From Candidatus Aenigmatarchaeota archaeon (lineage in GTDB: Archaea; Aenigmatarchaeota; Aenigmatarchaeia; QMZS01), in the NCBI GenBank assembly GCA_003663355.1, contig QMZV01000002.1, positions 1-52,169 on the forward strand: 52,169 nucleotides of DNA. Reading direction: 5' to 3'. Both the position numbers and the translations under genes were made by a program. Shown piece after piece: positions 9,018 to 52,169 of this stretch. The notes below the pieces were generated by a model. It did not search any database. It had not been told where the DNA came from and worked only from the letters and a program-made list of their open reading frames with translations. How positions within the stretch are numbered: position 1 is the first letter of the stretch; each line of letters starts with the position of its first letter.

Positions 9018-10796
9018 ATGAAGTTAAGATTTTTGTTGATTCTATCTATTGTTATATTCAGTTTAAGCCCTATTTTAGCATTAAAAGAGACAACAATATA
9101 TTTGCCTGCTGTTCAGGAGACGGAATACGGATATGAAGGTGCTCTTGCAACTTTAACAGTAAATATAAAAGAAGGAGAGGGACATGTTTATGTTGATACC
9201 TGGCCCCTAACGAAAATAGACACACAAGCCTCTGCAAGAATGGCAAAACAGGTTGCTTGCGATATTTTGAATTTAGACTGCTCAAATTATGATTTTTTTT
9301 ATATAATAAGGTCTGAAGCGCAGATTGTTGGAGGACCAAGCGGAGGAGCGGCTATGACAATTGCAACTTTAGCTTCTCTTCTCAATACCACAATAAATAA
9401 CAATGTTCTAATAACAGGAACAATAAATTTAGATGGTTCAATAGGTCCAGTGTCTGGAATTATGGAAAAAGCAGAAGCTGTTTCAAAAAAAGGAAATACT
9501 TTTTTAATACCTTATGGCCAATCTGTTATTAGTGTTGAGGAAACAAAAAAAGAAAAAATTGGTCCTTTAGTTATCCAGCAGAGTGCTCCAAAAAAATTAG
9601 ATATAATAAAATATGCAAAAGAGAATTTAAATTTAACAGTCAAAGAAGTTAAAACTGTTCAGGAGGCATTTAAATATTTCACAAATTATGAACTCAAAGT
9701 AAAAGAGGTGGAATTTAAAAGAACAGAAGAATATCAAAAGGTTATGAAAAAGTTGGCAGATGATTTGCTTAATCAATCAAATAAACTAAAAAAAGAATGC
9801 GAGGAAAAACTTAGTAATTCAAAAATAAGTTATGATTATGAAAAACAAGTTTCAAAACTTTGCAGTTTATCCCTAGATAAAGCAAGAGAAAATTATAATA
9901 AAGAAAATTATTATTCTGCTGCTTCTCTAGCCTTTTCAAATCTAATCTCTTATAGATACGGATTAAATTTAATAGATTTGTTAGAAAGCAAAAATAAGAA
10001 ATATTTTCTTAAAAATTATTTAAGAAATATAGAAAGCAGAATTTTTGATGTAAATACTTCAAACATAGAATTATATGCAATAATAGAAGAAAGAATCTCT
10101 GAAGTCCGTGAAAATCTTGAACTTGGCTGGAAAAATTATTATAATGAAAATTACATTCAAGGGATTTATTATGGTTCCTTTGCAGATTCCAGATTATATA
10201 CAGCAAACTTATGGAAGGAATATGCAGAAGAATTTCCAGTTTATATAGAAACAAAAGCAGACTTAAAAGAAATTTCAAATGATGTAATTTCAAAAGTTTC
10301 TTCTATTTTGACCTATATTTCATTCACAACATCAAATAAATTCTTGGATAAAGCTAATGATTTGCTAAATAAAGCAAAAGACAATTATAATTCTAAAAAC
10401 TATTATTCAGCAATCATACTTGGATTGAAGAGTGAAGCAAATGCAGAATTATCAGCAGAAGTTTTGCAAAAAGATAAAGATTATTTAATAGAGTTGCACA
10501 GAAAAAGGGCACTAATTTCACTAAACAAAACAAACTCTGTGATTGGTCAAAGCTATTTTGAATATGCAGAAACTTTAAAAAAAGATAACAAAGATGCTTC
10601 TTTAACCTATTATACTTATGCAGAAAAACTTTCAAGACTGAATAAACTATTAAATAAAGAGATTACATCTGAGAAAATAGAGCCAAAAGAATATTTATCT
10701 CCTGTTTCTTGCAATTATGAGAAAGCAATTCCTTTCTTTTTGATTTCTATTATTCTTTGTTTTATTGCTGGAATAATTGTAGGAAGATTTATATGA
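9018..10796 (+). CDS. Exported, C-terminally membrane-anchored S16 (Lon-type proteolytic domain) serine peptidase with a helical repeat region
   Basis: Signal-like N-terminus MKLRFLLILSIVIFSLSPILA; Lon catalytic Ser context GGPSGGAAMTIATL and Lys context SGIMEKAEA; three YNxxNYYSA-type repeats; C-terminal TM segment FFLISIILCFIAGIIVG. Confidence 0.65.
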   Translation: MKLRFLLILSIVIFSLSPILALKETTIYLPAVQETEYGYEGALATLTVNIKEGEGHVYVDTWPLTKIDTQASARMAKQVACDILNLDCSNYDFFYIIRSEAQIVGGPSGGAAMTIATLASLLNTTINNNVLITGTINLDGSIGPVSGIMEKAEAVSKKGNTFLIPYGQSVISVEETKKEKIGPLVIQQSAPKKLDIIKYAKENLNLTVKEVKTVQEAFKYFTNYELKVKEVEFKRTEEYQKVMKKLADDLLNQSNKLKKECEEKLSNSKISYDYEKQVSKLCSLSLDKARENYNKENYYSAASLAFSNLISYRYGLNLIDLLESKNKKYFLKNYLRNIESRIFDVNTSNIELYAIIEERISEVRENLELGWKNYYNENYIQGIYYGSFADSRLYTANLWKEYAEEFPVYIETKADLKEISNDVISKVSSILTYISFTTSNKFLDKANDLLNKAKDNYNSKNYYSAIILGLKSEANAELSAEVLQKDKDYLIELHRKRALISLNKTNSVIGQSYFEYAETLKKDNKDASLTYYTYAEKLSRLNKLLNKEITSEKIEPKEYLSPVSCNYEKAIPFFLISIILCFIAGIIVGRFI

Positions 10797-20212: not shown

Positions 20213-20231
20213 ATTATTACACTGTTATAAT
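20213..20231 (+). promoter_or_regulatory. 19-bp near-palindromic box ATTATTACACTGTTATAAT
   Basis: Exact consensus copy, ending 38 bp upstream of the 20269 start and preceded by GTTTGTAA. Confidence 0.7.
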
Positions 20232-34836: not shown

Positions 34837-34899
34837 ATTATTACGGTGTTATAATTTAATAAAAAAGAGTTGGTTTGTGAATTATTACACTGTTATAAT
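34837..34899 (+). promoter_or_regulatory. Paired near-palindromic boxes (ATTATTACGGTGTTATAAT, 25-bp spacer, ATTATTACACTGTTATAAT)
   Basis: Boxes at 34837-34855 and 34881-34899. The whole 63-bp module is nearly identical to 49961-50025. Confidence 0.75.
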
Positions 34900-47497: not shown

Positions 47498-47976
47498 AAT
47501 CCTGCTTCATATAATATCTTTGTAAAATCTGGTTCAAGTTCTGTTTCTTCTCCTTTTTTAAAAGAATAAACTCTCCCTGATGGAGATAAAATCTCTGGTA
47601 TGTCTTTTAAAAAAACAACCTTTACTTTTGTATTTTTTCTTTCTTTTGTTTCTTTATTAATATAATTCTGTTCAAAAGAATGATCATATTTTCTTATAAT
47701 TTTAATCAACTCTAAATATAATTCTTTCTCTAAATCTTCTTAATTTTTAGGAAGGTTGTTTGTTTTGTAAAATAAAAAGGCAAGATTTAAGATTTTCTTT
47801 TTTCTTAATTCAAAAATAGAATAAACAAGGTTTTTTGCGCTTTTTTCTTCTATTGTTCCTTTTTTTAGTTTAATGTAGTTAAATGCATTTTCATAAAAAT
47901 TTGGTGGTAGTTGTTGCAATTTTTCTCCTTTCTCTTTTTGCTTGATTTCCCGAATTTTCTCATATGTTAATATCAT
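47479..47976 (-). pseudogene. GINS subunit (Gins51/COG1711-like) with a single in-frame TAA at 47742-47740
   Basis: The two track ORFs (47740-47976 and 47479-47709) are in the same frame. Joined they read ...LTYEKIREIKQKEKGEKLQQLPPNFYENAFNYI...NNLPKN*EDLEKELYLELIKIIRKY...KVKVVFLKDIPEILSPSGRVYSFKKGEETELEPDFTKILYEAGFCKII. That is a GINS A-domain followed by a B-domain. The start overlaps the orc1/cdc6 stop by 4 nt. Confidence 0.65.
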
Positions 47977-49169
47977 GTTTCAAACATGTTAGAAAAAGTT
48001 GATTTTAAAATGTCAAAAGATTTTTTTGCAATTGCCAACCTGATTTCTCTTGTTCTTCCATATCTTCCTTTTGAAACAACTTTTGTTGAAATCAGTCCAA
48101 GCATATCTAATTCCGAAATTAAATCAGAAATTCTCCTTTGAGTTAGAGTTTTATATCCATTTCTCTTACATAGAGAAAGATAAACTTCATAAACATCTCC
48201 TGTCAGGATTTGGTCTTTGCCTTTTTCAAAAAGTTTTAAAATTGAGTAAAGAGTTAGTTGAGAATGTCTTGGTTGTGTTTTTGCTAATTCCGTAACTCTA
48301 TCTAATTCTAATTTTTGCTCTGCAAGGTCAACGTGTTTTTCTGTAATTTTTTTGTCTTCATTTCTTTCAGCAAGTTCTGCTGCCACTCTTAATAAATCCA
48401 AAGCCCTTCTTGCATCACCCTGTTCTTGAGCAGCTATTGCAGCACATTTTTCTATAACTCCTTCTGAACAAACTCCTGGTTTTAATGCAATTTTTGCTCT
48501 TTGTTGCAAAATATCTTTTAGTTGTAAGGCATTGTAAGGCGGAAAAATAATTTCTTCTTCTGATAAAGAACTTCTCACTCTCGGGTCTAAATCATCTGTA
48601 AAAGAAAGGTCGTTAGAAATCCCTATTATGCTAATTTTCGCATTTTTTAGTTCTGTGTTTATTCTTGTTAAATTGTATATAAGGCCGTCTCCAATTTTTT
48701 TAACTAATGCGTCTAATTCATCCAAAGCAAGCAAAATAATTTGCTCTTTTTCATCTATCAATTCAAATAATTTGTTGTATAATGATTCTGTAGGCAATCC
48801 TGTTTCAGGAACTGGGAAATTTAATTCTCTAAGGATATAAGCCAACATTCTGTACTCTGTATCTGCAGTTTTTTTTAATTTGCAGTTTATATAAACTGGT
48901 TTTAAATTTGTTGTGTTTGTTGATTTAAGTTCGCTAAAAATGTGTTTTATTACAACAGATTTTCCTGTTCCTGTAGTTCCGTATATGAAAAGATTGGATG
49001 GTTGCTCTAATTTTAAGGCAGGGGCTAAAACTTTTGCAATACTCATTATTTGCTCATCTCTATGCAAAATCTTATCTGGAATATAATTATGGGTTAATAA
49101 TTTTTTATCAAGAAAAAAACTTTCTTTGTTTATATAACTAGAAAAAAACTTCTTAAGTTTCTCTTGCAT
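47973..49169 (-). CDS. cdc6: Orc1/Cdc6 replication initiator
   Basis: LHRDEQIMSIAKVLAP, Walker A YGTTGTGKS, Walker B LALDELD, sensor motifs (GISND, GDARRALDLL) and a C-terminal wHTH. Confidence 0.95.
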   Translation of the reverse strand: MQEKLKKFFSSYINKESFFLDKKLLTHNYIPDKILHRDEQIMSIAKVLAPALKLEQPSNLFIYGTTGTGKSVVIKHIFSELKSTNTTNLKPVYINCKLKKTADTEYRMLAYILRELNFPVPETGLPTESLYNKLFELIDEKEQIILLALDELDALVKKIGDGLIYNLTRINTELKNAKISIIGISNDLSFTDDLDPRVRSSLSEEEIIFPPYNALQLKDILQQRAKIALKPGVCSEGVIEKCAAIAAQEQGDARRALDLLRVAAELAERNEDKKITEKHVDLAEQKLELDRVTELAKTQPRHSQLTLYSILKLFEKGKDQILTGDVYEVYLSLCKRNGYKTLTQRRISDLISELDMLGLISTKVVSKGRYGRTREIRLAIAKKSFDILKSTFSNMFET

Positions 49170-49302
49170 AACCTATATTTCAAGTAGAAATATTTATAGA
49201 TTTCTGTTGTTTACAATATTTTTATAAAAATAGAGTTTTGAATATCGTAGCCTGACTCCTATATTTCTTGTGGAAATAATAAAAATAATTAGAGAAGGAA
49301 AA

Positions 49303-49321
49303 ATTATTACAGTGTTATAAA
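49303..49321 (+). promoter_or_regulatory. Near-palindromic box ATTATTACAGTGTTATAAA
   Basis: Lies in the 198-bp intergenic region upstream of orc1/cdc6. Confidence 0.7.
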
Positions 49322-49367
49322 ATAGTCTTATTTAGGTAATGGGTAATGCTTTAATAAATCATTCGAA

Positions 49368-49865
49368 TCATTCGCTTTTATGTTTATATTTATAAAAAGC
49401 CATTCCTAATCTCAATCTTGCCCACGTACATAAACTTGGCGCTTCAAGAATATCCTCTTCATAAGGCATCAATCTTTCCAAAGAAGTATCTCTTGTTTCA
49501 ACTTCTTTTCCATTAGGATAGCTTTTATTAGTATGCACTAAGCAGTTCCCATTATTATCTATAGAATAAATATCTACTTGTTTTTCTTCAGGAGAAATTT
49601 CAAGCATTCTTACAATAGTCGGAAAAATCTTTGTGATACCAACATTTCTTAAATGATGAATATCAATATAGATTTTACGCCCATCTTCCAATTGCTTCTC
49701 CAATTCGCAAATATAGTGGTGAGCAAGATTTGGATTTAGTGCTTTTGCTTCTAATTTATCCATATCAAAAAAATCTACCCCTTCTACCAAACCAGATTTT
49801 TCAGGAGCTTTTGCAATTTCACCAAAAGCTTGTATTGTTTGTTTATAATGAGTGCTTTTTCTCAT
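49368..49865 (-). CDS. Hypothetical protein (165 aa)
   Basis: Well-composed ORF with no motif recognised. Confidence 0.5.
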   Translation of the reverse strand: MRKSTHYKQTIQAFGEIAKAPEKSGLVEGVDFFDMDKLEAKALNPNLAHHYICELEKQLEDGRKIYIDIHHLRNVGITKIFPTIVRMLEISPEEKQVDIYSIDNNGNCLVHTNKSYPNGKEVETRDTSLERLMPYEEDILEAPSLCTWARLRLGMAFYKYKHKSE

Positions 49866-49960
49866 AATAGATAGTATAAATTAAAAATATAAATTTATGC
49901 ATTGCTAAACTCTTCACTAAAATTTCAATTTATCAATTAGTTGTTTAGATGGGATATAAA

Positions 49961-50025
49961 ATTATTACAGTGTTATAATTTAATAAAAAAAGGTTTGGTT
50001 TTGTGAATTATTACACTGTTATAAT
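49961..50025 (+). promoter_or_regulatory. Paired near-palindromic boxes (ATTATTACAGTGTTATAAT, 27-bp spacer, ATTATTACACTGTTATAAT)
   Basis: Boxes at 49961-49979 and 50007-50025. The module is near-identical to 34837-34899. Confidence 0.75.
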
Positions 50026-50093
50026 TTCAATTTTGTATGGGGCATAATTTTTGATTTAAAAAATTTTAGGTTTAGGCTGGGTTTTGTTGAGTT

Positions 50094-50741
50094 TTATGAG
50101 GGTTTGAGGGAAAATTTCTTCAATTTCTTTAGAACTTTCTTTAAGGCACTTTGTAGGTTAGATTCTTGCTTTTCTTCCTCTTTTATTTTTTGCCTTATTT
50201 CTTCTATTTGTGCAATACTATTCCCTATTGAAATCGGTGTTGTACCTATTTTACTTGAGATCTCTTCTAGAGATAATTCATCCTTTTTTTCTGCTAAATA
50301 AATACAAGCACCTGCTATAGGACGAAAAGCGAAAGCGTATTCTTCAATATCTTTTTCAACAGAGTCATATAAAGATATGGCATTTTTTGTTTCTTCTTCA
50401 TCTAGTTCTAATTTTGGACCGTATACACTTATAAGTTTCTTTATAAATGCACTTCTGGGTATAATAGGTGGTTTTTCTCCATATTCTCTAGAAATCTTTG
50501 TAGATATTTTTGCAATATATCGAGGGTCTTCTCCAAGAGACTCTGCAATTTCCTCATATATTACTTGTTCACCTCTTTTTATAAGTTCTATATAGGCTAA
50601 AGCACCTGCTAATGCTGTTCTCCTTGGAATTCTCTTTTTTTCCTTTCTTTTTTCTTCTGTATAAGTTTCATATCTTTTCAGCATATTGTCTGCTACTTCT
50701 TTTCCATAATCCACTTGTATTATCTTGTATATTTGATCCAT
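50094..50741 (-). CDS. TFB-like protein with the two cyclin-fold repeats only (no Zn-ribbon or B-reader)
   Basis: RRTALAGALAYIELIKRGEQVIYEEIAESLGEDPRYIAKIS... and FRPIAGACIYLAEKKDELSLEEISSKIGTTPISIGNSI parallel the two cyclin repeats of the bona fide TFB at 36871. Start MDQIYKII at 50741 is preferred, because the upstream extension is hydrophobic and looks non-coding. Confidence 0.6.
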   Translation of the reverse strand: MDQIYKIIQVDYGKEVADNMLKRYETYTEEKRKEKKRIPRRTALAGALAYIELIKRGEQVIYEEIAESLGEDPRYIAKISTKISREYGEKPPIIPRSAFIKKLISVYGPKLELDEEETKNAISLYDSVEKDIEEYAFAFRPIAGACIYLAEKKDELSLEEISSKIGTTPISIGNSIAQIEEIRQKIKEEEKQESNLQSALKKVLKKLKKFSLKPS

Positions 50742-50932
50742 ATTTAATGCTGATCTCATAAAAATAAAATGTAAAAAAACTTTAAATACCCAATTATTAA
50801 TAAGTAAATACATTTGATTTTACAGATATAAATTGAATAAGAGAGAAAAAGATAATGTTTATAGTTTAATAGAAGAGACACAATTCACATTGGTTTATTG
50901 CCTTCCACTTGAAATAAAAGGGTCATAGTCTA

Positions 50933-50951
50933 ATTATTACACTGTTATAAT
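50933..50951 (+). promoter_or_regulatory. Near-palindromic box ATTATTACACTGTTATAAT
   Basis: Exact consensus copy between the AAA+/wHTH gene end (50979) and the TFB-like gene start. Confidence 0.7.
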
Positions 50952-50978
50952 TTTTCTCTTCACCAAGAATTGAAAGTG

Positions 50979-52037
50979 CTAATATCTTACCAACATTGTT
51001 CTTGTAGAAGGGCTCAATTTGTAATAATAGGTTTTTCCTGTTTTTTCTCTTTCAACATATCCTTCTTCCAAAAGTCTTTTTAACAAATTATTTATTGCTC
51101 TTAAAGCATGTTTATCAGAAGGATAATCAGGAAGATATTTTATAATTTCATTAGGAGTTATTGGTTCATGTTCTACAAGAATATCAATAATTTTTCTCTG
51201 CTTCCCAGACAAATCTTTTAATTTTTCAAGATTTATCTTCTTTTCCTCTTTTCCCGTTTTTTTATCTATAAGATTAATATCAATAATTTCAGAATCATGT
51301 TCGGCACCAAGATTTAATAAATCATTGCATAATAGAATAACATCTCTTGGAAAACCCCCTGTTCTGGAATAAATATATTCAATTACATTATAAGTAAAAG
51401 GTTTTATATCAGTTCCTCCAACATTTTCTATTCTTCTTCTTATTAATTCTTCTGTTTCTTCTTTTGTTAGGGCGTTTAATTCAATTCTTTCCACAATTCT
51501 TTTTTTAAGAGTCTCTAGATTTTTTGTTAGTATATCATCAAATACAGGCAAAGCAGAAAAAACAATGGTCAGATTTTGCACTTGATCGGAAATTACTCTA
51601 AACCACTCTAAAACTTCAATACTTGCCTCATGTGCTTCATCAACAAACAAAACTTTTGGTTTTTTTATTATTTTATTCAGAAAAAAAGGCAAATATTCTA
51701 TTTTTTTTGGTTTTCTTATAAAAATTTTCTTAAAAAAAGGCAAATCTCTAATAAAAAAATCTGAAATACTGAGCAAACCTGAAATTTCTCTCGGAGGTTT
51801 GTTTAATACAATAAAATTGTTGTTTTTTTTAGAAACATACGAAATTATGCTTGTTTTTCCAGATCCTGTTGGTCCTGTAAGCAAAATAATCTTTTGTTGC
51901 TGCTCTATATTCTTTAGCAATTTTGTTATTTGCTGATTGTATCCAACAACCAAAAAAGGATTTATCTCTAAAGTAAATGGATTTCTTCTCAGGTTTTGTT
52001 TTCTTAACCAATCTTTATATTTTTCTAATCCATCCAT
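50979..52037 (-). CDS. AAA+ ATPase (ExeA/AAA_22, ORC-related type) fused to a C-terminal winged helix
   Basis: RRNPFTLEINPF..., Walker A LTGPTGSGKTS, Walker B LFVDEAHEA, LTKEETEELIRRRIE...TGGFPRDVILLCN, then wHTH LSGKQRKIIDILVEHEPITPNEIIKYL...LLEEGYVEREKTGKTYYYKL. Confidence 0.75.
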   Translation of the reverse strand: MDGLEKYKDWLRKQNLRRNPFTLEINPFLVVGYNQQITKLLKNIEQQQKIILLTGPTGSGKTSIISYVSKKNNNFIVLNKPPREISGLLSISDFFIRDLPFFKKIFIRKPKKIEYLPFFLNKIIKKPKVLFVDEAHEASIEVLEWFRVISDQVQNLTIVFSALPVFDDILTKNLETLKKRIVERIELNALTKEETEELIRRRIENVGGTDIKPFTYNVIEYIYSRTGGFPRDVILLCNDLLNLGAEHDSEIIDINLIDKKTGKEEKKINLEKLKDLSGKQRKIIDILVEHEPITPNEIIKYLPDYPSDKHALRAINNLLKRLLEEGYVEREKTGKTYYYKLSPSTRTMLVRY

Positions 52038-52048
52038 ACTTTTACCAA

Positions 52049-52169
52049 GTTCACGTGAAGTTCACGCCAAGTTCACGTTGTTCACGTGAACTTCTTATTT
52101 TGGCGTTTATCCTTAAAATTTTGGACTTTACGTTCACGTGAAGTTCACGTTATGTTCACGCAAGTTCAC
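52049..52169 (+). repeat. Iteron-like array: 8 copies of GTTCACG in two phased clusters, truncated by the window end
   Basis: Copies start at 52049, 52060, 52071, 52080 and at 52132, 52143, 52154, 52164. GTTCACGTGAAC at 52080-52091 is a perfect palindrome. Confidence 0.9.

Follow-up and report, generated by a model that had tools for sequence, protein, structure and literature searches.

A helically phased array of GTGAAC half-sites upstream of an AAA+ winged-helix ATPase gene in Aenigmarchaeota

Why does the gene for a winged-helix ATPase in an Aenigmarchaeota genome carry a long run of evenly spaced 7-bp repeats in front of its start codon, and which protein reads them? The stretch analysed here (the window; 52,169 bp, contig QMZV01000002.1) ends inside an array of GTTCACG repeats that lies directly upstream of a gene for a 352-amino acid (aa) protein (50979–52037, minus strand), which consists of an AAA+ ATPase domain, a lid and a C-terminal winged helix. 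A preliminary description of this DNA had taken the array for a candidate replication origin or initiator operator. We propose that the array is the cognate, cooperative binding platform of the adjacent ATPase, with the sites arranged on the same face of the DNA. Judging from sequence patterns and a structural model, we put the probability of this reading at about one half.

The array in the window and in strains with an identical ATPase

The exact heptamer GTTCACG has eight matches in the window, all of them within 52049–52160 and none elsewhere, whereas dinucleotide-preserving shuffles of the window contain 0.67 on average and never more than 3. Seven of the copies are on the plus strand (52049, 52060, 52071, 52080, 52132, 52143 and 52154), and the single minus-strand copy at 52085–52091 forms, together with the copy at 52080, the perfect 12-bp palindrome GTTCACGTGAAC (52080–52091). 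A ninth copy, truncated to GTTCAC, makes up the final six bases of the window (52164–52169). The recount thus agrees with the preliminary description, which gave eight copies, two clusters of four plus-strand copies with spacings of 11/11/9 and 11/11/10 bp, and the same palindrome. Once one mismatch is allowed, the window contains no more copies than expected by chance (37 observed against 37), so it is the exact core and the way in which its copies cluster that set the array apart.

The promoter-proximal cluster (52049–52091, minus strand) contains four direct half-sites, which begin at 52049, 52060, 52071 and 52080, and the inverted copy at 52085–52091. When read towards the ATPase gene, its half-sites have the sequence YGTGAAC, and the nearest copy is 11 nt from the ATG. 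This cluster is likewise present in all contigs that encode an identical ATPase. The distal cluster (52132–52169, minus strand) contains the full copies at 52132, 52143 and 52154 in addition to the truncated one, and the two clusters are 52 bp apart from start to start, which corresponds to five helical turns. Two further occurrences of the 10-bp palindrome core TTCACGTGAA are found at 52050–52059 and 52133–52142. Between the clusters is a 40-bp spacer (52092–52131, minus strand) that carries, on the minus strand at 52106–52124, the sequence CCAAAATTTTAAGGATAAA, which resembles a B-recognition element (BRE) followed by a TATA box. The spacer had also been described as AT-rich; it is real, but its GC content of 27.5% is close to the window average of ~29% and does not set it apart as AT-rich.

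Thirteen public contigs code for exactly the same 352-aa protein (contigs and lineages are labelled L001 and so on), and these show that the array does continue past the end of the window, as had been surmised. There, the array occupies the entire intergenic stretch between the stop codon of a same-strand 98-aa gene and the ATG of the ATPase gene. The possibility raised earlier, that the repeats lie inside a coding sequence beginning past the window, is thereby excluded: the array is intergenic and its length varies between strains. No plausible open reading frame (ORF) spans it, only short low-complexity artefacts cross it, and the Rfam search on the long-form array returned a chance-level match only (E = 0.2). 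In the 21 kb of L001, GTTCACG does not occur outside this intergenic region.

Three forms of the array were observed among these strains. The short form (L001, L003 and L008; 195 bp intergenic, 11 half-sites) starts with a copy over the stop codon of the 98-aa gene, followed by six direct copies, the 40-bp spacer, and the palindrome with three copies. The medium form (L009; 363 bp intergenic, 15 half-sites) has six copies, a unique and extremely AT-rich segment of ~125 bp, and then the proximal block. The long form (L004/L005 and L002; 478 and 498 bp intergenic, 22–24 half-sites) contains extra copies, the same AT-rich segment as L009, and an exact 125-nt duplication of a block with four copies, the spacer and four copies (L004 1247–1371 equals 1529–1653). 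The offset of this strain-level duplication is 282 bp, or 27 helical turns, and the helical register is preserved by it. Four sequences (the window, L006, L007 and L010) break off within the array. The end of the window coincides with the boundary of the block that is duplicated in the long-form strains, which is where a de Bruijn graph is expected to branch; the source genome therefore probably has the long form, and the 195-bp short forms may be assembly collapses. The array thus also explains the repeated assembly breaks at this locus.

Conservation, helical phase and the adjacent ATPase

The layout of a small winged helix-turn-helix (wHTH) gene, the array and the ATPase gene was found in at least 11 Aenigmarchaeota lineages, in which the ATPase is 100% (window species), 71% (L272), 67% (L011), 66% (L047), 64% (L049), 58% (L013), 45% (L050), 39% (L228), 36% (L259), 35% (L225) and 34% (L216) identical. 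L272, L011, L047 and L049 form the clade in which the locus is adjacent to orc1 and GINS, and relatives in the window clade have an intergenic array of 680–915 bp between the small wHTH gene and the ATPase gene; the L047 contig breaks off in the array at a distance of 175 bp from the ATPase gene. The intergenic region of L013 is 1036 bp long with 11 TTCACGTGAA palindromes. In L050 the three-part layout is kept, but the neighbours are radA, rpa and a histone gene instead of orc1. The arrays of the four lineages at 34–39% identity (L228, L259, L225 and L216) came from a metagenome DNA-pattern scan that sought three phased GTGAAC copies and was unbiased as to genes. L225 again has the small wHTH gene upstream of the array, and in L180 and L278 the small wHTH gene is followed by the array at the contig end. 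Among the metagenome matches listed, every genuine array adjoins one of these two genes; the other dense matches were unrelated perfect tandem repeats of 11–12 bp, for example GTGAACTGACA and GGTGAACCTGGG, and were discarded.

The half-sites of all lineages share the consensus TTnR-YGTGAAC-TT, in which the invariance of GTGAA is built into the half-site search and the flanking positions are biased as well. There are 2–11 TTCACGTGAA palindromes per array in L011, L013, L047, L049 and L050, and the palindrome is also present in L228, L259, L225 and L216. Across six species, 52 of the 103 spacings between successive half-sites are 10 or 11 bp, and most of the others are near multiples of 10.5 bp (21, 31, 42, 52, 63, 74, 83, 124–126 and 136). 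The period scan gave a best period of 10.35–10.5 bp in every species, and the Rayleigh R was 0.81 in L001, 0.87 in L004, 0.89 in L011, 0.94 in L049 and 0.84 in L050, where the null, taken as the 99th percentile of random positions, was 0.50–0.81. The phase extends to the clusters themselves: the eight clusters of L049, which span 660 bp, have their first sites in phase (R = 0.96), and the sixteen clusters of L011 give R = 0.88. Phase is kept over up to 900 bp, and the largest arrays contain 20–33 sites over up to ~1 kb. From the phased spacings and the Rayleigh statistics, the sites share one face of B-DNA across hundreds of base pairs. The helical phasing noted in the preliminary description is therefore borne out more strongly than the window alone would show.

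The ATPase was compared with protein families through Pfam and NCBIfam, and its structural model was compared with known structures through Foldseek. Pfam assigns residues 46–170 to AAA_22 (40.2 bits, cut-off 27) and the C-terminal winged helix to Penicillinase_R (33.5 bits, cut-off 22.6). The protein has a Walker A motif (GPTGSGKT), a Walker B motif (DEAHE) and a sensor-2-like GGFPR, and its winged helix has the recognition helix HALRAINNLLKRL. Pfam found no match to Cdc6_C or Cdc6_lid in this protein, in contrast to the genuine orc1 at 47973–49169, which scores 108.7 and 94.3 bits in these tests. TIGR02928 gave 17 bits, far under its cut-off of 181 bits, and the ExeA-like TIGR03015 gave E = 2.5e-22 yet stayed far below its own cut-off, so the ATPase is not that equivalog. 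Its best match in PHROG is phrog_296, a MuB-like 'DNA transposition protein' (5e-12). The AlphaFold model (predicted local distance difference test score, 91) has the AAA+, lid and C-terminal winged-helix architecture of Orc1/Cdc6 proteins. Its top full-length Foldseek matches are origin recognition complex (ORC) and Cdc6 proteins (7jgr_A, 5v8f_A, 2qby_A and 1fnn_A; E about 1e-10, template modelling score about 0.5), including the DNA-bound archaeal 2qby and 2v1u, followed by RuvB, RFC, archaeal PF01637-type ATPases and MuB filaments (8xvb). The ATPase thus resembles ExeA/MuB proteins in sequence and ORC/Cdc6 proteins in fold, and on its sequence it is not a member of the Orc1/Cdc6 family. Given that fold, to speak of an initiator-type protein with its operator was fair, and the assignment of the repeats to the adjacent gene stands.

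This protein belongs to a conserved chromosomal family of Aenigmarchaeota, whose full-length members fall into about fifty 50%-identity clusters and occur on contigs as long as 846 kb; the names of the homologues also place the window in Aenigmarchaeota. Weaker relatives are bacterial ExeA-like proteins that match over the ATPase core only. Another member, L016, was found by a protein scan of genome contigs with the ATPase alignment, a scan that was dominated by the P-loop pattern. Among the aligned relatives, the Walker A and Walker B motifs and the arginine of GGFPR are invariant. The recognition helix, HA(L/V)R(A/S)(I/V)NN(L/I)L..L, and the wing, R.GK.Y.Y.L, hardly vary over the whole range of 34–100% identity, in parallel with the conserved half-site.

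The position of the array relates it to the start of the ATPase gene, with sites invariably beside or within the putative promoter of that gene. In most of the array-bearing lineages, the last site is ~8–15 nt before the ATPase start codon. The BRE/TATA-like CCAAAATTTTAAGGATAAA in the spacer is a candidate promoter of this gene; it is conserved in the L180 spacer (as AAATTTTAAGGATAA) and in part in L272 (as GCCAAAATAAGAAGTTCACGTGAAC). Transcription would start ~25 nt downstream of the CCAAAATTTTAAGG element, that is, within the palindrome of the proximal cluster, so that this cluster would cover the start site and the leader while the distal cluster would abut the BRE. Because the sites flank and overlap the BRE/TATA-like element and the 5′ leader, we infer autoregulation of the ATPase gene as the minimum consequence of binding and the minimum function of the array.

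Lineages with the ATPase and without a long array are informative in this respect. L014 and L052 have two TTCAC half-sites 11 bp apart, directly upstream of the TATA box TATTTAAATA, and L016 keeps a single TTCAC half-site at the ATPase promoter. In L014 and L052 the ATPase gene is between a LigT gene and a PRC-barrel gene, in the company of the small wHTH gene, radA and rpa. As two phased half-sites are found at the ATPase promoter in array-less lineages, a minimal phased operator seems ancestral or general, and the large arrays look like expansions of it. TTCAC clusters elsewhere in L014, L016 and L052 were considered as arrays and rejected; they fall within opposite-strand coding sequences, those of LigT and the OB-fold protein. 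Separately, the first ~15 ATPase codons of L014 (6001–6060) and L016 (5950–6000) contain degenerate (A/G)TGAA repeats with a spacing of about 8–12 bp, which may be left over from the operator or may extend it into the coding sequence.

These features suggest the following arrangement. Each winged-helix domain would read one GTGAA(C) half-site, and the TTCACGTGAA palindromes would serve as anchor sites for two protomers. Direct repeats at 10–11 bp would place successive protomers on one face of the helix, where the AAA+ domains could oligomerise head-to-tail in an ATP-dependent manner. The outcome would be a single large nucleoprotein assembly of 0.2–1 kb. The small wHTH protein would be a conserved partner that probably regulates itself through a lineage-specific palindrome in its own promoter.

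The small protein bears on the question of which protein reads the array. The 98-aa product is a MarR-like winged helix, homologous across lineages at 30–38% identity, and its recognition helix varies among lineages. The palindrome in its own promoter is GAACAnTGTTC in the window clade and L013, GGACAAGTGTCC in L050, TTGACCCGGTCAA in L052 and L016, and ACACGTGT in L278. Because the motif and the ATPase winged helix are conserved together and the small helix varies, the small protein would regulate itself through its palindrome and the ATPase winged helix would read GTGAA.

Several observations weigh against this proposal. In the phase test, L013 gave R = 0.63, below its null of 0.70. The orientation of the half-sites also differs between lineages: the window clade has GTGAAC pointing towards the gene, L259 and L225 mostly TTCAC. 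This is awkward for a filament of a single fixed polarity. The naming of the ATPase rather than the small wHTH protein as the putative reader is the simplest reading of conservation patterns, and it is these patterns that it stands on. The helix of the small protein is fairly alike in the array-bearing lineages (S/A-T-V/L-H/A-Y/R-Y), and in two array-less lineages (L052 and L016) it is WTVSRT and the gene order is different; this distribution fits the small wHTH protein as the reader as well. Finally, 20–33 sites over up to 1 kb exceed the needs of autoregulation, and the minimum function stated above probably misses the main role of the array.

Other explanations of the array

A larger role could take one of two forms. 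A tentative possibility, which we hold to be doubtful, is that the locus is an unrecognised Aenigmarchaeota replicator–initiator pair or an AAA+-driven centromere, with the lineage-specific ORC-fold ATPase polymerising on up to ~1 kb of same-face GTGAAC sites and thereby opening or organising DNA, either in concert with the canonical Orc1/Cdc6 origin or apart from it.

As a replication origin, the array with its AT-rich insert would be the replicator and the ORC-fold ATPase a dedicated, non-Orc1 initiator. Like DnaA on oriC, the ATPase would form an oligomer on phased sites of one orientation, and would in this way melt the AT-rich segment and bring in MCM; the locus would be a second replicator–initiator pair, adjoining the orc1 origin or apart from it. 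Archaeal replicator–initiator pairs comprise an AT-rich region, flanking repeats and an adjacent initiator gene (PMC4010727), and these three structural hallmarks, with an initiator-type gene, are present in the long-form relatives. In L004, L011, L049 and L225, the 50-bp stretch with the lowest GC content of the locus (4–16% GC) is within the array and flanked by repeats, and the full-length ATPase fold matches Orc1/Cdc6 proteins bound to origin DNA (2qby, 2v1u and 7jgr). Both types of synteny (orc1–GINS or radA–rpa) place the locus among replication or recombination genes, strain-level variation in copy number is typical of iteron regions, and an array size far beyond autoregulation would be explained, as it would equally by a centromere or chromosome organiser.

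We nevertheless consider an origin unlikely. The ATPase fails the Orc1/Cdc6 family tests by sequence and matches the Orc1/Cdc6-family (or WhiP) initiator found next to archaeal oriC by fold only. The motif is not like an origin recognition box (ORB), with no published match found, and the sites point in the same direction on both flanks of the AT-rich insert, where ORBs are usually inverted. The AT-rich segment is absent from the short-form L001, L003 and L008 and outside the window itself, and as a candidate conserved element it was rejected, being conserved between strains only and not between species. The lineages with two sites (L014 and L052) or one (L016) have the ATPase without a long array. 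In the window clade, a canonical orc1 with its own upstream repeats is 1–3 kb away, and adjacency to orc1 is seen in one clade only (L011, L047, L049 and L272), the ATPase of L050, L052, L014 and L016 being near radA/rpa. GC and AT skew at the locus tracked gene orientation only and are uninformative about an origin. The further idea that two initiator/site pairs might exist within 3 kb is weak, since the 19-bp box near orc1, which it took for the second site, is dispersed, with 7 copies across the window.

The origin could also have belonged to a mobile element, as an integrated or ex-plasmid module had been suggested earlier. We found no sign of an integrated, plasmid-derived or viral module: the ATPase is from the chromosomal family described above, and its best PHROG match is a MuB-like AAA+ protein. 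The repeat unit is 10–11 bp with a 7-bp core, and there is no Rep-family match; plasmid iterons, by comparison, are direct repeats of ~17–22 bp beside a rep gene of the Rep family. PADLOC on the locus gave nothing significant and no defence-system match of note. A 239-aa 'TFB-like' gene had been counted as a part of this possible module, but it does not belong to the unit, since it has no TFIIB match in Pfam and is strain-variable beside an identical ATPase. A viral or plasmid origin was rejected in a viral scan that sought pairs of TTCACGTGAA (IMG/VR contigs L054–L133), in which at least 120 phage contigs carried a different palindrome, TGTTTCACGTGAAACA, and none encoded relatives of either protein. 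The 16-bp TGTTTCACGTGAAACA occurs on these contigs in pairs 20–45 bp apart and looks like a widespread phage operator that is unrelated to the archaeal array.

A more doubtful explanation is that the array is the operator of the 98-aa MarR-like protein, whose dimers would bind GTGAAC and repress the ATPase gene, with no structural role of the array. The protein is indeed a MarR-like winged helix, long arrays occur only where its gene is directly upstream and a motif copy overlaps its stop codon, and its recognition helix is alike in the array-bearing lineages and different in the array-less L052 and L016. Against this, the motif is invariant although the small protein is only 30–38% identical between lineages, and the small wHTH promoter has another palindrome, which changes with the lineage and looks like its true site. 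The phased TTCAC at the ATPase promoter is kept in L014 and L052 despite a different small wHTH helix. Moreover, a dimeric repressor accounts for the palindromes, not for 20–33 phased direct half-sites.

It is improbable that the array is a centromere-like or chromosome-organising site, at which it would nucleate a partition or condensation complex and repress the embedded promoter, comparable to parC/ParR of plasmid R1 or ParB at parS, with the AAA+ domain providing nucleotide-dependent assembly. The parC site of R1 consists of two direct-repeat clusters that are phased and flank a promoter. Here, a promoter-like spacer has a direct-repeat cluster on each side, phased at one helical turn: short repeats at 10–11 bp (4 + 4 or 6 + 4 copies) surround a putative operon promoter. 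The sites keep to one helix face over hundreds of base pairs, the locus encodes an NTPase alongside a small DNA-binding protein, and there is one large array per locus in the sequence examined, close to orc1 in one clade. However, a motor of the ParA, ParM or TubZ type and a ParB-like protein are both lacking nearby, where an AAA+ ATPase and a small protein that is MarR-like, and neither ribbon-helix-helix nor ParB, are encoded instead. It also counts against such a site that, to our knowledge, no AAA+ partition ATPases are known, and that array-less lineages retain the gene pair.

A meaningless simple repeat or a contig-end assembly artefact, to which the breaks within the array (the window, L006, L007 and L010), the possibly collapsed short forms and the unrelated 11–12-bp tandem repeats with GTGAAC in other metagenomes (L196, L223, L207 and L249) might point, is effectively refuted by the independent assembly of the array in 13 contigs from various samples and assemblers, by the conservation of motif, phasing and gene context down to 34% protein identity, and by copies that do not form a uniform tandem repeat.

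Surroundings of the locus and comparison with known systems

The 19-bp near-palindromic box ATTATAACAGTGTAATAAT is present in seven copies in the window (20213–20231, 34837–34855, 34881–34899, 49303–49321, 49961–49979, 50007–50025 and 50933–50951), compared with 0.03 expected. All seven are intergenic, two of them between convergent genes at 34.8 kb. As the box is spread over the window and is found even in a gap between convergent genes, it is a dispersed element and not an orc1-specific ORB. The GAACAnTGTTC palindrome at the BRE/TATA of the small wHTH gene (L001 about 9455–9470) is related to this box. Upstream of orc1/cdc6 (47973–49169), the region 49170–49300 contains on the minus strand two copies of the 21-nt TATTTCYACWWGAAATATAGG, 86 bp apart, which flank an AT-rich stretch shortly upstream of the orc1 start codon and have the inverted-repeat core ATTTC..GAAAT. 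These repeats may be real ORB-like elements of a canonical origin.

The interval between the ATPase gene and orc1 varies among strains with an identical ATPase (window 49170–50978 and L001 11060–12868, compared with L003, L004 and L007). It contains genes for proteins of 239 aa and 165 aa, of 174 aa, of 165 aa, or none (487-bp intergenic), and forms a hypervariable islet bounded by 19-bp boxes. In some strains, RtcB is a 957–963-aa protein with an intein (Intein_splicing, LAGLIDADG; L001 19857–21059, L003 11458–13368); L004 10224–12720, by contrast, has a 480-aa RtcB beside a separate 450-aa ORF. About 6–10 kb past the window edge, L001 1–4069 carries three tandem AAA_14/DUF4143 ATPase genes and a HEPN/nucleotidyltransferase pair, and looks like a defence or toxin–antitoxin islet. 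It adjoins a Rad50-like gene, beside which no Mre11 gene was called.

DPANN archaea, including Aenigmarchaeota, are largely uncultivated, and their replication start and chromosome organisation have been little studied. In the literature, we found no paper with the motif and none describing this module among those on Aenigmarchaeota or DPANN origins, Orc1/Cdc6, ORBs, winged-helix or AAA+ proteins. The role of the protein family, the 7-bp half-site with its CACGTG-centred palindrome, the array size and long-range phase-locking, and the pairing with a MarR-like protein are undescribed. The locus provides a conserved protein–site pair, one AAA+ winged-helix protein and one invariant 7-bp half-site, that is amenable to in vitro work. 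In the minimal reading, it would be a defined case of a predicted ATP-dependent, filament-forming archaeal autoregulator. If it were a true origin, it would add a new type of initiator beside Orc1 and WhiP in archaea, and were it a true centromere or organiser, it would have no AAA+-based precedent.

In kind, a phased array of sites for an oligomerising DNA-binding protein within its own promoter is known, and four systems are instructive for comparison. In archaeal oriC, where ORBs are linked to orc1/cdc6, or in Sulfolobus oriC3 to whiP, repeats likewise adjoin a gene for an AAA+ winged-helix protein of the ORC/Cdc6 fold, gene and sites are linked, and a very AT-rich segment lies between repeats, as it does in the long-form relatives here. 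ORBs are longer elements than the 7-bp half-sites, which are spaced at 10–11 bp and combined with palindromes of 10–12 bp. Furthermore, the ATPase is ExeA/MuB-like (AAA_22) and not Orc1/Cdc6 by sequence, and there are up to 33 sites over ~1 kb, in the same orientation on both flanks and not always by orc1.

The DnaA oligomerisation regions of bacterial oriC resemble the array in having same-orientation sites with an 11-bp period by an AT-rich element. In E. coli oriC, stronger anchor sites are beside weaker phased ones, and DnaA oligomerises head-to-tail through its AAA+ domain. The Aenigmarchaeota protein differs in that its predicted DNA-binding module is a winged helix and not DnaA domain IV, its family is another one, its host is an archaeon, and its sites are in its own promoter.

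The type II parC/ParR systems of R1 and pB171 have, in the textbook layout, two clusters of phased short direct repeats that flank the promoter, and their partition complex doubles as a repressor. The locus described here shares the clusters, and has in place of a ParM/ParA motor an AAA+ NTPase with its own DNA-binding domain; it is chromosomal and conserved at the level of the phylum.

The closest sequence relatives of the ATPase core are the AAA+ proteins of the MuB/TnsC/TniB type (AAA_22), and the MuB–DNA filament 8xvb is among its fold matches. These proteins polymerise on DNA with ATP, without sequence specificity, and have a transposase as partner. The Aenigmarchaeota ATPase, in contrast, has no transposase beside it, and combines such a core with a C-terminal winged helix that is predicted to be sequence-specific and with a fixed, putatively cognate array.

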